Assembly (NCBI GenBank): GCA_023229365.1
Contig: JALNZK010000002.1
Location: 254,343-318,342, forward strand
DNA: 64,000 bases
DNA from: Pseudomonadota bacterium
GTDB taxonomy: Bacteria; Myxococcota_A; Polyangia; JAAYKL01
Reading direction: 5' to 3'
Shown in pieces: positions 27,632-30,229 of this stretch. Made by a program: the position numbers and the translations under genes. Under the pieces are notes generated by a model, which did not search any database, was not told the DNA's origin, and saw only the letters and a list, made by a program, of their open reading frames with translations. The number at the start of each line of letters is the position of its first letter. The stretch's first letter is position 1.

Positions 27632-28426
27632 TTGAAAATCAAAATTTCTTTACTATATAATGTAAGGAGATTTTTTATGTTACAAAGAACGACAAAAGAG
27701 GTTGCACAATACTTTTCAGATAATAGATGCGAATTACTTGATGAATATATTGGTTGTATGAATAAAATGAAATATCGATGTTCTTGTGGCAACATTTCAT
27801 CAATTACTTGGAATAATTTTACTAAGGGCAAACGATGTGGGTGTGGCTCCAAGTATAGGAGAAGATATACATTTGAAGATGTAAATAAAATATTTACAGA
27901 TTATGGATTTGTTCTTATATCAAATGAATATCCTGGTTATAAAAACCCACTAAAATACAAGTGTAAATGTGGAGCAAATAGAGAAAAATCATTATATCAT
28001 TTTTTACATAATGGCAAACATTGTGATAAATGTGCTCATAAAATTATGGGTATGAAAAGACGCAATCCCAATCGCTCATTCGAACGTAAATTCAAAGCAA
28101 AAATGCATAAAGCTTTGCGAACTTGTCTACAAGCTATCGGCAAGACTAAGGCAGGACACACCGCCGATCTCTTGGGATATGGACCAAAGGACTTGCAAAC
28201 AAGAGTTACTAATCACCCAGACTGGCATAATGTAAAAGATCAAGTTTGGCATCTCGATCATATTTTCCCTATTCAGGCATTTATCCGCTATAAAATCAAT
28301 GATTTAAAACTCATCAATTGCCTTGAAAACCTTCGCCCAATGAATGGAAAGGAAAATGACATCAAGCACAATAGATACAATAAGCAGGATTTTGAGTTTT
28401 GGCTAAGACTCAAAGGAGCATTATGA
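27632..28426 (+). CDS. HNH homing endonuclease with N-terminal repeated Zn-binding modules
   Basis: HNH core WHLDHIFPI...NLRPMNGKENDIKHN. Three KYxCxCG...NF repeats. Confidence 0.7.
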   Translation: MKIKISLLYNVRRFFMLQRTTKEVAQYFSDNRCELLDEYIGCMNKMKYRCSCGNISSITWNNFTKGKRCGCGSKYRRRYTFEDVNKIFTDYGFVLISNEYPGYKNPLKYKCKCGANREKSLYHFLHNGKHCDKCAHKIMGMKRRNPNRSFERKFKAKMHKALRTCLQAIGKTKAGHTADLLGYGPKDLQTRVTNHPDWHNVKDQVWHLDHIFPIQAFIRYKINDLKLINCLENLRPMNGKENDIKHNRYNKQDFEFWLRLKGAL

Positions 28427-28596
28427 TTACGTTTAAAGAATGGCAAGAGGGAACAATTAAAGGGCTTCCAGAACTTGGATTTACGGGTGGACCCCCAGCT
28501 TTTCACGACATAGAAGATCGGGTTGAACAACTAGAAAACAAAGTTGATTTGTTGATGAAAATAGTACGACCCGAAACTATGCGGATTGCTTCTTAA
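28423..28596 (+). CDS. Small CTS-leader protein (candidate internal head protein)
   Basis: ATGA overlap with the HNH stop. N-terminus MITFKEWQEG. Confidence 0.4.
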   Translation: MITFKEWQEGTIKGLPELGFTGGPPAFHDIEDRVEQLENKVDLLMKIVRPETMRIAS

Positions 28597-28626
28597 AATC
28601 CTTTTACAAAAACTACATACTTTAGC

Positions 28627-29082
28627 ATGAATTTTAAAGAATTTATTACTGAGTCTACGACATCCAGGTATAGTGTCGAGGTAAATTACCGCACCAGAAA
28701 ACAAGAGGTTTTAGAAGCGGCGGGCAAAATTACCTTGGGCTATGTTAGTGCTGCTCTCAAACAAAATGGATATCATGTTAAACAATTGTTTGACGAAACA
28801 CCTATTCGCATTGTTGTTTCAACTCGCAATTTTGAAGAAGGCGAATGGGTTGGCTTCCTGATATTTTATTCTAAAGATGGCGGAAAATATGTGATTGCTA
28901 ATGGATTTTATAACAGAGGACAAAAAAGCGTATCATTACAAACTTGGAAGGATGCCAAAGGTGATTCCCCCGCTGAACTAGCCGCCGAGATGAGAACGGT
29001 TATGTTTGAATTAAAAGAACGCAAAGATCGACATTTGCCCAGCTTGAAGCCCATTCCTTTAAAAAGAGGACCAAAGAAATGA
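28627..29082 (+). CDS. CTS-leader protein (candidate internal head protein), 151 aa
   Basis: N-terminus MNFKEFITE (I-x-E site). Confidence 0.5.
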   Translation: MNFKEFITESTTSRYSVEVNYRTRKQEVLEAAGKITLGYVSAALKQNGYHVKQLFDETPIRIVVSTRNFEEGEWVGFLIFYSKDGGKYVIANGFYNRGQKSVSLQTWKDAKGDSPAELAAEMRTVMFELKERKDRHLPSLKPIPLKRGPKK

Positions 29083-29387
29083 AAACATATAAGGAATTTG
29101 CGGAACAAGTTGGTGATTTTAAAGATCAGGAAACTTTATTAAAGACCTTGGGCTTAAAATCTGTGCCTCCAAAAAAACAATTAAAAGTAGTTGGTAATAC
29201 AGAGCCTGAATATGATCCCCAAGCAGAAAAGGCACAAGGTGATTTATATGCCTCTTTGGTAAAAGAATTACAAGATTTATTGGACACTTTGGACTGGGAT
29301 GAAAGCAATGTGGTGGGAATTCAACAAGCTCTTGCTAAAATCAATCACCAGGGACAGGCTTATCTCAAGCATATATCAAGCAAATGA
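29079..29387 (+). CDS. CTS-leader protein (candidate internal head protein), 102 aa
   Basis: N-terminus MKTYKEFAEQ closely resembles the T4 IPIII CTS MKTYQEFIAE as recalled. Confidence 0.5.
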   Translation: MKTYKEFAEQVGDFKDQETLLKTLGLKSVPPKKQLKVVGNTEPEYDPQAEKAQGDLYASLVKELQDLLDTLDWDESNVVGIQQALAKINHQGQAYLKHISSK

Positions 29388-30229
29388 AATTTTTAGAATG
29401 GGCAGAACAACGCCAACAACAACCGATAGCCGCACAACCAGTCATTTCCTATGACTTCGATGGTGTTTTACACACGGACGTTTACCCTGGAACCATTCAC
29501 CCCGTAGATTTTGATACCGCTGATCTTACCCCTAATTTACCAATGCATCGACAACTCAGAGACGATGCCAGAAAAGCCAAAATCATTGTTGTTACCGCTC
29601 GAAACCAAGATGGAATAATGGACGATGCCGCCAGACAGTTTGTTAGAAAGCATAATCTACCCGTCTCTGCTTTTTTCTTTACAAATGGTGGACAAAAGGT
29701 TTCTATACTCAAACAACAACACGCAATTAAACATTATGATGACGATCCCCGGATGAGGGCTCAATTGATGGACACAGGCATTGAATTTGTTCTAGTGCGA
29801 CCACAAATGGAATCGACAATATATGAGTCAGTAAAGAAAAGAAAGAAAACCAAACCTGCCGCTGGTATATTTTTCACAGACGGCAGAGCGGTGCTAATGC
29901 TCAAGCGACGACCACCAGGAAGCAATCCTAATACATGGGGACTTCCAGGCGGTCACTCAGAGGGCGAAGAAACGCCACTTATGGCCGCTCAAAGAGAAGC
30001 ACGAGAAGAATGCGGCAAAATGACCGGCAAGAAATTCGGTGTGCTAACCAGCGGTGCTTGGACTTGTTTTTTTTACCAAGTGCCAAAGACTTTTCGTTGT
30101 GAAATTAGCGAGGAACACGACGCTTGGGAATGGGTAAAATTTGAAGAACTTAAACACTTGCAATTACATCCCCAATTCAAAAAACAAATGCAAAGATATA
30201 TTGCATTTGTGAAAAGACACTTTGCCTAA
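29384..30229 (+). CDS. HAD-family phosphatase domain fused to Nudix hydrolase, with CTS-like leader
   Basis: HAD motifs DFDGVL (I), VVTAR (II) and HYDDD (IV). Nudix box GGHSEGEETPLMAAQREAREECG. N-terminus MKFLEWAEQ. Confidence 0.65.
   Translation: MKFLEWAEQRQQQPIAAQPVISYDFDGVLHTDVYPGTIHPVDFDTADLTPNLPMHRQLRDDARKAKIIVVTARNQDGIMDDAARQFVRKHNLPVSAFFFTNGGQKVSILKQQHAIKHYDDDPRMRAQLMDTGIEFVLVRPQMESTIYESVKKRKKTKPAAGIFFTDGRAVLMLKRRPPGSNPNTWGLPGGHSEGEETPLMAAQREAREECGKMTGKKFGVLTSGAWTCFFYQVPKTFRCEISEEHDAWEWVKFEELKHLQLHPQFKKQMQRYIAFVKRHFA

Follow-up and report, generated by a model that had tools for sequence, protein, structure and literature searches.

Why should a dozen proteins of different size and predicted function begin with nearly the same few residues? 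The question is raised by a 64,000-nucleotide stretch of contig JALNZK010000002.1 (positions 254,343 to 318,342, hereafter the window; 40% G+C, approximately 85 to 100 genes), of which 84 open reading frames (ORFs) were used for regular-expression and tblastn counts. The answer that we favor is that the shared leader, M-x(1,2)-[FY]-x-x-[WF]-Φ…E (Φ, a hydrophobic residue), is probably a capsid-targeting sequence (CTS) of the phage T4 type with propeptide function. A first-pass annotation, made from the letters alone, had described a family of at least ten such proteins and regarded them as candidate injected effectors. All ten N-termini were found at the start codons it gave, and addition of the ORFs at 45997-46209 (-) and 55432-55728 (+) brings the number of carriers to 12. 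Gene calls made independently for public assemblies give the same starts to 26704-, 28423+, 28627+, 29079+, 29384+ and 55432+. The carriers are as follows, with an arrow marking the putative cleavage point.

6039-7031 (+): 330 amino acids, MDFKGFLLSE↓MMVH; candidate PARP-like ADP-ribosyltransferase (ART), phrog_11974
7040-7525 (+): 161 amino acids, acidic with a Q/P-rich tail, MEFKYFILNE↓GRAY
26531-26704 (-): 57 amino acids, basic, MKFSEWIKMRE↓AGAG; GGAGG resembling a Shine-Dalgarno (SD) site upstream; same gene in the public assembly
28423-28596 (+): 57 amino acids, MITFKEWQEG; a 57-residue gene in the public assembly as well
28627-29082 (+): 151 amino acids, MNFKEFITE↓STTSRYSVEVNYRT; family of 376 proteins on large phage contigs
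29079-29387 (+): 102 amino acids, MKTYKEFAEQ; closest of the set to the start of T4 IPIII, MKTYQEFIAE
29384-30229 (+): 281 amino acids, MKFLEWAEQ; fusion of a HAD-like domain (DxD, 5'-nucleotidase-like) with a NUDIX domain
45997-46209 (-): 70 amino acids, MKTFIKWCEE; new addition, with a homologue in the related phage LR756511 at 487329-487493
49760-50362 (+): 200 amino acids, highly charged and acidic, GTG start, (M)LTFKEWKTLNE↓NFGG; AGGAG SD site upstream
51001-51819 (-): 272 amino acids, MNFKEWMINE↓AKVV
51816-52856 (-): 346 amino acids, MEFRLWLLED; match to PF18760 ART-PolyVal at E 0.013, below the cutoff
55432-55728 (+): 98 amino acids, leader-like MGTFREFLGR with no E site; new addition, weak HTH matches, with HTH_7 at E 4e-4

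The motif first proposed for the family, M-x-[FY]-[KRS]-[EG]-[WF], describes some members as written; in three the first aromatic comes one residue later, and the starts MEFKYF, MKFLEW and MEFRLW deviate from it. A consensus that covers all 12 is M-x(1,2)-[FY]-x-x-[WF], usually followed within a few residues by a hydrophobic residue and Glu, and the aromatic pair [FY]-x-x-[WF] stands at residues 3/6 or 4/7 in 12 of 12. An [LI]-x-E site at residues 8 to 12 had been ascribed to all ten original members. It is present in six of them (6039, LSE; 7040, LNE; 28627, ITE; 49760, LNE; 51819, INE; 52856, LLE), and in the other four the sites read WQE, FAE, WAE and MRE. The carriers range from 57 to 346 amino acids and from pI 4.6 to 10.1, with five of the 12 being acidic. 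None of the replication, nucleotide-metabolism, modification or tail proteins of the window bears the leader.

The motif is concentrated at gene starts. The string [FY][KRS][EG][WF] occurs nine times in the 20,164 residue positions of the window proteome, and seven of these occurrences are at residue 3 or 4 of a start, compared with 0.03 expected; for the loose form [FY]xx[WF], 11 were observed at these positions compared with 0.88 expected. When the pattern was loosened and applied to the 1875 possible starts with at least 45 sense codons after them, it gave 16 matches, 12 of which were real genes. The strict leader expression matched 11 of the 84 window ORFs (13%), compared with approximately 0.2 expected from internal positions, and these 11 consist of ten of the twelve carriers and one doubtful ORF at 15980-16399 (-), LQVFRTF. 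In T4, the same expression matched 3 of 231 proteins (IPII, IPIII and gp61.1); in Staphylococcus phage K, which is AT-rich and served as a control in place of Listeria phage LIS04, a carrier of a T4-type U9 protease fusion, it matched 2 of 96. In the T4 record (NC_000866), gp61.1 (54 amino acids, 18966-19130, -) starts with MKTFKEFIKED, a near-perfect CTS, and 57B (73952-74410, -) starts with MMEFKDF; we know of no description of either as a head protein.

All-against-all BLASTP of the 12 carriers showed that their common part is confined to the first 6 to 12 residues. Given that no similarity extends beyond the leader, it behaves as a module rather than as part of a family domain, and, as judged from these comparisons, it is a portable module on at least 12 unrelated proteins within the window. 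Conserved residues are encoded by varying synonymous codons (TTT/TTC, AAA/AAG, GAA/GAG), which indicates that conservation acts on the peptide and not on the DNA. The HAD-like and Nudix domains of the 29384 protein also occur as separate proteins among its homologues, most with a leader of their own and a few without, again indicating that the leader is modular.

The similarity to T4 is close. The T4 record gives MKTYQEFIAE↓A for internal proteins (IPs) II and III, as the first-pass annotation had given for IPIII, and MKTFKEFTSTTTPVSTITE↓ATL… for IPI, which begins with MKTFKEF and has the site ITE↓A. The leaders MNFKEFITE, MKTYKEFAEQ, MITFKEWQEG, (M)LTFKEWKTLNE and MNFKEWMINE of the window are near to these. 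Mutagenesis of the T4 CTS has assigned targeting to the aromatic residues 4 and 7 and processing to residues 8 and 10 (PMC9026906), and the window motif conserves exactly the targeting positions 4 and 7. Cleavage by gp21 after L/I-x-E, on which the earlier annotation relied, agrees with published T4 work (PMC9026906, PMC8442874); the same studies show that an uncleavable CTS still targets and that fusion to the 10-residue CTS leads to packaging and delivery of foreign proteins. The leaders share with the T4 IPs the M-K-T-[FY]-x-E-F start, portability between unrelated proteins and, in part of the set, a following Φ-x-E↓A. They differ in that the second aromatic residue is mostly W and in that many are one residue shorter.

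The best evidence for a propeptide is provided by the 151-residue protein at 28627. Its 376 metagenome homologues, many of which are on contigs of 100 to 380 kb, were sampled by alignment of 120. The conserved domain begins with …[ST]RYSVEVN[YF]R. Ahead of it is an extension of 9 to 92 residues (median, 32), which opens with an aromatic leader in 111 of the 120 and closes with Φ-x-E in 116, the latter 2 to 6 residues ahead of the invariant Arg. At the junction, P3 is mostly Leu (76 sequences) or Ile (24), and the commonest residue at P1' is Ala (51), ahead of Ser (21), Asn (13) and Gly (10). A second site, I-x-E-x-T, is frequent in the longer extensions. Fixed ends with a free middle of variable length are the pattern expected of a removable propeptide cut by a gp21-type enzyme, and the combination of conserved ends and variable length would be hard to explain otherwise. 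An AlphaFold2 model of the protein (mean predicted local distance difference test score [pLDDT], 84) shows a confident α+β domain with residues 1 to 20 outside it, the leader forming a short isolated helix; the model had no significant fold match in PDB. T4 IP propeptides differ from these, which span 9 to 92 residues and can have a second site.

Judged from its genes, the source of the window is a phage of the T4 superfamily, and it measures at least 228 kb. The window encodes a sheath (20349-22709, -), two gp19-like tubes, a gp15 tail-sheath stabilizer, a T4 baseplate hub and a gp13 neck protein. Its sequence is also present on a 228,182-bp ENA contig, ERZ27247350 k141_1691469, and a 340,072-bp contig, that of MCK9458590.1, holds the record of one of its proteins. 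The window is collinear with the 439- to 496-kb region of the 595-kb uncultured phage LR756511.1, where tblastn found 37 of the 84 ORFs in the same order at 27 to 60% identity. Approximately 25 to 40 kb past this collinear part, LR756511 has a head module consisting of terminase, portal, a 616-residue protein, gp21, a gp22-like scaffold and a gp23 homologue. The gp21 homologue is 222 amino acids long and 35% identical to T4 gp21; a search with it yielded 1289 family members, with PF03420 on all 120 of those listed. The same head module was recovered from five further relatives. A gp21-like protease, to be sought elsewhere in the genome according to the first-pass annotation, was found in LR756511 and five other relatives as a PF03420 protein, but not on the reachable contigs of the window's own genome.

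The scaffolds of this clade contain 3.4 to 5.5 [LI]xE sites per 100 residues; the corresponding density is 1.1 for the window proteome and 5.9 for T4 gp22. The major capsid proteins (MCPs), at the following positions in LR756511 and in relatives designated by L numbers, start with MNANARFLNE↓A, whose F7, L8 and E10 match the T4 CTS, and around residue 50 they share a conserved L-x-N-E.

LR756511, 523506-524981 (-): MCP
L141, 9875-11311: MCP
L143, 11618-13060: MCP
L147, 11636-13072: MCP
L148, 11658-13097: MCP

The N-terminal and residue-50 sites are possible maturation sites. Together with the richness of the scaffolds in [LI]xE, they suggest that the L/I-x-E specificity of gp21 has been kept in the clade.

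All of the relatives also encode, between the portal and gp21 genes, a protein of approximately 600 residues that starts with MKRKLI[NS][FY][DE][VA]F.K[IL].E, a CTS-like sequence displaced by four residues. This protein may belong to the core or the interior of the head.

L141, 6216-8096: approximately 600-residue head-module protein
L143, 8183-9976: same protein
L145, 8018-9967: same protein
L147, 8192-9922: same protein
L148, 8106-9965: same protein
LR756511, 526639-528489 (-): same protein

For the genome of the window itself, we infer a head module from synteny and from the T4 core-gene set. The 10 kb beyond each window end contain only replication, modification and hypothetical genes, with no gp21. 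Among the 120 PF03420 proteins listed out of 1289, none could be tied to the 228- or 340-kb contigs, and P0176 is on a 32-kb contig from other samples. A scan of GTDB genomes returned six other contigs of metagenome-assembled genomes (MAGs), and the M0R80 MAG was not among them.

In related phages of 300 to 600 kb, the leader is present on dozens more proteins per genome. LR756511 has from 38 (strict expression) to approximately 50 (by eye) leader ORFs among 1058. Three of these genes lie directly after the MCP gene and encode a NADAR protein, a 486-residue protein with a phosphoribosyltransferase domain and a 1076-residue protein; others encode C39-peptidase and 2H-phosphoesterase domains. 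A scan of IMG/VR for ATGAAYTTYAARGARTGG gave at least 118 loci. The matches listed include 58 distinct ORF starts, many on contigs of 200 to 530 kb, and of these 58, 35 have Leu at residue 7 and 30 have a Φ-x-E after it, the latter compared with 7 of 36 out-of-ORF controls.

The expression context was assessed for the cluster at 28423-30229, in which four carrier genes are on the same strand behind two neck genes.

26776-27615 (+): gp13-like neck gene, with PF26809 Phage_T4_gp13 on the public gene call
27677-28426 (+): gene for a 249-residue protein in the gp14 position

Start and stop codons overlap as ATGA at 28423, 29079 and 29384, and no terminator was found on the plus strand between 26.7 and 30.2 kb. 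Given this coupling behind the neck genes and the lack of a terminator, the cluster genes are probably late. A sigma-70 promoter scan of 25.5 to 30.8 kb performed no better than shuffled sequence. Ahead of 7040, a perfect T4 late-promoter octamer, TATAAATA, is located at 7011-7018, 21 nt upstream, and TAAATA occurs 4 to 5 nt before the ATG of 6039 (6029-6034), 52856 (52862-52867, -) and 55432 (55421-55426). TAAATA is also found ahead of the tube gene and other tail genes, at 17 to 30 nt and with an SD site. A TA[AT]ATA box accompanies 21 of the 58 MNFKEW ORFs among the IMG/VR matches listed, compared with 1 of 36 control matches. The box adjoining the ATG is similar to the late promoter of T4 and suggests leaderless late transcripts. 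The interval from the sheath gene to the first tube gene contains a hairpin and TAAATA.

The proposal that the leader is a T4-type capsid-targeting and propeptide sequence agrees with all of the in-silico tests, namely those of T4 likeness, phage type, propeptide architecture, modularity and expression context. By this mechanism, the leader would bind the gp22-type scaffolding core during prohead assembly, so that the carrier would be enclosed in the head. A gp21-type prohead protease (S77/PF03420) would then cut after Φ-x-E, ideally at L/I-x-E↓A/S, and remove the leader; the mature protein would stay in the DNA-filled head and enter the host together with the DNA. That the carriers serve in anti-defense or host takeover, as the first-pass annotation suggested, is conjecture.

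Several points weigh against this proposal. The load would be large, at 4 to 13% of ORFs, and carriers reach 1076 residues in the relatives. Several of those in the window are acidic, unlike the small basic IPs of T4. Leu or Ile at P3 is missing in the four original members with WQE, FAE, WAE and MRE as well as in 46209 (WCE), and 55432 has no Glu; Φ-x-E is also not consistently present in the HAD/Nudix family. Protease, scaffold and MCP come from relatives only, and not from the reachable contigs of the window genome, while core binding, cleavage, packaging and ejection are inferred from sequence and not from virion proteomics. Finally, 28 of the 78 leader ORFs of LR756511 have TA[AT]ATA 3 to 7 nt upstream of the ATG, compared with 34 of 980 others (p 7e-18), a strong association that leaves room for an expression-linked explanation.

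According to that explanation, conservation of the start reflects a signal for expression: leaderless mRNAs starting from TAAATA would constrain the first codons (ATG AAn TTT AAA GAA TGG), and the likeness to the CTS would be incidental. The enrichment of the box at leader ORFs in LR756511 and among the IMG/VR matches and its presence at three window members are what such a signal would give. Most window members, however, have an SD site or translational coupling without the box, and the aromatic residues are kept while synonymous codons vary. Alternation of F with Y and of W with F makes no sense at the RNA level, Φ-x-E follows at a variable distance of up to 90 residues downstream, and the same peptide is encoded in T4 IP genes behind ordinary SD sites. 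In view of the SD sites and coupling, the retention of aromatics rather than codons, the variable position of Φ-x-E and the T4 genes, we rate this explanation as improbable. An origin in chance, or in the effect of an AT-rich genome on N-terminal codons, is harder still to maintain, to the point of being scarcely credible, and is rejected on the counts. Codons for Lys, Phe and Asn are indeed common at 40% G+C. The first-pass annotation had itself named a similar frequency at random ORF starts as a finding that would count against its reading, but 7 to 11 matches were observed where 0.03 to 0.9 were expected; moreover, matches among the 1875 possible starts were nearly confined to real genes, and the AT-rich phage K gave just two in 96. 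Common descent, either of paralogues with a shared N-terminal domain or of 5' ends copied with their promoters as recombination cassettes, would account for the adjacency of carriers at 28423-30229, 51001-52856 and 6039-7525. We nevertheless consider it very unlikely: paralogy is rejected by the confinement of BLASTP overlap to the first 6 to 12 residues, a conserved upstream DNA cassette is rejected by the lack of conservation of upstream sequence between members, and homologues within one family differ in leader length and sequence.

The main residual alternative to capsid targeting, which we regard as unlikely although less so than those above, is that the leader is a protein tag with another destination or fate and that carriers are not loaded into the head. 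Such a tag might direct proteins to a shell formed by the Major Vault Protein (MVP)-like product of 30774-33227, to regulated proteolysis, for example by a second gp21-like protease such as that of LR756511, or to a phage chaperone. The number and size range of the carriers, which go beyond anything known for T4, the second gp21-like ORF, the MVP-like protein encoded in the window and the absence of a canonical cleavage site from some carriers would all be compatible with it. On the other hand, the leader is near-identical to the T4 CTS as defined by experiment, with the determinant positions conserved, and the L/I-x-E↓A junction is that of a prohead protease site. Leader genes lie directly after the MCP gene in LR756511 and a head-module protein has a CTS-like start, and the MVP-like gene has no homologue in LR756511, yet leaders are abundant there.

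With capsid targeting as the preferred reading, the predicted cargo can be described gene by gene. The 6039 protein has homologues in KVP40-like vibriophages (KVP40.0290 and nt-1 ORF157, tblastn), which start with MKNLKSFMEEL…LNE↓VF, the site being directly ahead of the conserved region. Its Pfam PARP match has an E value of 0.0076, and those of the KVP40 and nt-1 homologues have values of 1e-4 and 3e-5, all below the Pfam cutoff. PDB sequence searches for an ART assignment returned nothing, and a single-sequence AlphaFold2 model of the 6039 protein was unusable (pLDDT 42). The first-pass annotation had counted two ART-like proteins; weak similarity to ARTs is seen in 6039 and 52856, but given that the Pfam matches are sub-threshold the assignment is plausible yet unproven. 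Its HAD-Nudix fusion (29384) has a secure Nudix half (PF00293, E 2.5e-17, 63.5 bits compared with a cutoff of 21.1) and a weak HAD-like half (PF06189 5'-nucleotidase, E 0.0063), albeit with a clear DxD start. The protein that it termed extremely acidic (49760) has 47 D/E in 200 residues and a pI of 4.6, but also 32 K/R.

Leaders are retained in homologues of other carriers. The LR756511 homologue of 7040 has MEFKKFLITE at 452013, that of 55432 (a 98-residue gene also called in the public assembly) starts with MDGFKEFFAE, and four of the five homologues of the 102-residue protein keep a leader (MKTFHEY, MKFKQWVHE, MKFTEWLNE). Profile searches gave no family match for the 28423 and 51819 proteins, and IMG/VR contained no locus related to the 346-residue protein (52856). 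Directly after the leader cluster and convergent with it, at 30226-30438 (-), is a gene for a 70-residue Lar-type restriction-alleviation protein (PF14354 on the public gene call).

Other features of the window and its relatives were also noted. The gene at 30774-33227 (-) encodes an 817-residue protein with MVP repeat and shoulder domains (PF17795, E 1e-9; PF11978, E 4e-24), and its neighbors encode a 571-residue kinase-like protein (33788-35503, -) and a PP2C phosphatase (36043-36897, -), both with homologues in LR756511. The second gp21-like ORF of LR756511, at 242543-242992 (-), is divergent, being 27% identical to T4 gp21 residues 44 to 194, and is far from the head module. The two gp19-like tail-tube paralogues of the window are in tandem at 19124-19630 (-) and 19711-20268 (-). 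Neither the window sheath nor T4 gp18 had a tblastn match in LR756511, where tube and gp15 are nonetheless conserved. The best sheath match among cultured phages was Listeria phage LIS04 (OQ999172.1, L151), which is SP-15-like; at 306-1985, directly before its major capsid gene, it encodes a 559-residue protein annotated as peptidase U9 (T4 prohead protease) that is much longer than gp21. Portal genes encode 1243 to 1259 residues in some relatives and approximately 855 in others (L147, 3767-7498; L148, 2470-6249; L141, 1471-4044). These portals look intein-bearing, and L141 has a weak intein-splicing match. In L145 (11965-13405, CAVSYW010000005.1), the T4-type head module is on a 933-kb MAG contig labeled 'Acidobacteriaceae' and the gp23 homologue is split into several ORFs; possible explanations are a giant phage that was wrongly binned as a MAG, the remains of a prophage and a faulty assembly.

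A literature search found no paper on the leader strings (MNFKEW and others). The phage of the window resembles T4 in its morphogenesis genes, and its relatives resemble T4 in their PF03420 protease and [LI]xE-rich gp22-like scaffold. The scale differs, with 12 carriers in 64 kb and dozens per genome in relatives compared with three or four in T4. The predicted cargo includes enzymes and acidic proteins, whereas T4 IPs are small and basic, and a TAAATA box adjoins the ATG of many genes, unlike in the T4 IP genes. T4 Alt has a different propeptide and is an ART of the R-S-E type; the ART assignments here are sub-threshold. Head-packaged ART, Nudix, NADAR and 2H enzymes, which act in the NAD/ADP-ribose network and reach the host at infection, have been predicted in myoviruses (Iyer et al. 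2022, PMC9503650), and a comparable set is found here in the form of the Nudix fusion and two weak ART candidates and, in LR756511, of NADAR and 2H phosphoesterase; those predictions, however, were based on MuF or portal fusions and gene neighborhood and not on an N-terminal leader. The giant phages phiKZ, 201phi2-1 and SPN3US have many head-internal proteins, among them inner-body and ejection proteins with propeptides, that are cut C-terminal to Glu by a distant gp21 homologue, some of their propeptides having several sites (PMC9026906), but the sites are S/A-x-E, there is no T4-like aromatic CTS, and these phages, which lack tail and neck genes of the T4 type, belong to another lineage. In T-even phages (T2, T6 and others), the polymorphic IP loci contain diverse, fast-evolving ORFs that have only a CTS-like start and have been read as anti-restriction cargo (PMC3012670, PMC9026906). 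Such ORFs are known only in phages closely related to T4, each genome having a few small proteins of this kind, whereas the phages here are distant, huge and environmental and the scale is far larger.

What is new relative to the T4 CTS and IP device is its probable presence in a distant clade of huge phages, with many more carriers, longer propeptides with two sites, Trp as the second aromatic residue, enzyme cargo and, frequently, a promoter box of the leaderless type. We tentatively suggest, as a possibility on the doubtful side, that in huge T4-related phages the CTS has become a general address label and that, often together with the leaderless late-promoter box at the ATG, it forms a minimal 'promoter plus leader' cassette by which whatever gene the phage captures would be converted into an effector that is packaged in the head and injected. 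The capsid would in that case carry 4 to 13% of the proteome, as a multi-enzyme first-strike payload made up of dozens of enzymes (Nudix, ART, NADAR, 2H phosphoesterase, C39 peptidase and helix-turn-helix proteins, among others), and the entire 'injectome' of uncultured megaphages could be readable from sequence alone.

Injected phage proteins are normally known just from virion proteomics of cultured phages, and huge environmental phages are almost all uncultured. If the leader acts as in T4, a signature of 7 to 10 residues would predict the injected set for a whole clade of 200- to 600-kb phages and would yield a short list of candidate immediate-early anti-defense or takeover factors: the HAD-Nudix protein, the ART-like proteins and the widespread 151-residue family here, and NADAR, 2H and C39 enzymes in relatives. 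The T4 CTS device would then be ancient and portable across the T4 superfamily, and it would be useful for engineering protein delivery by phage heads.

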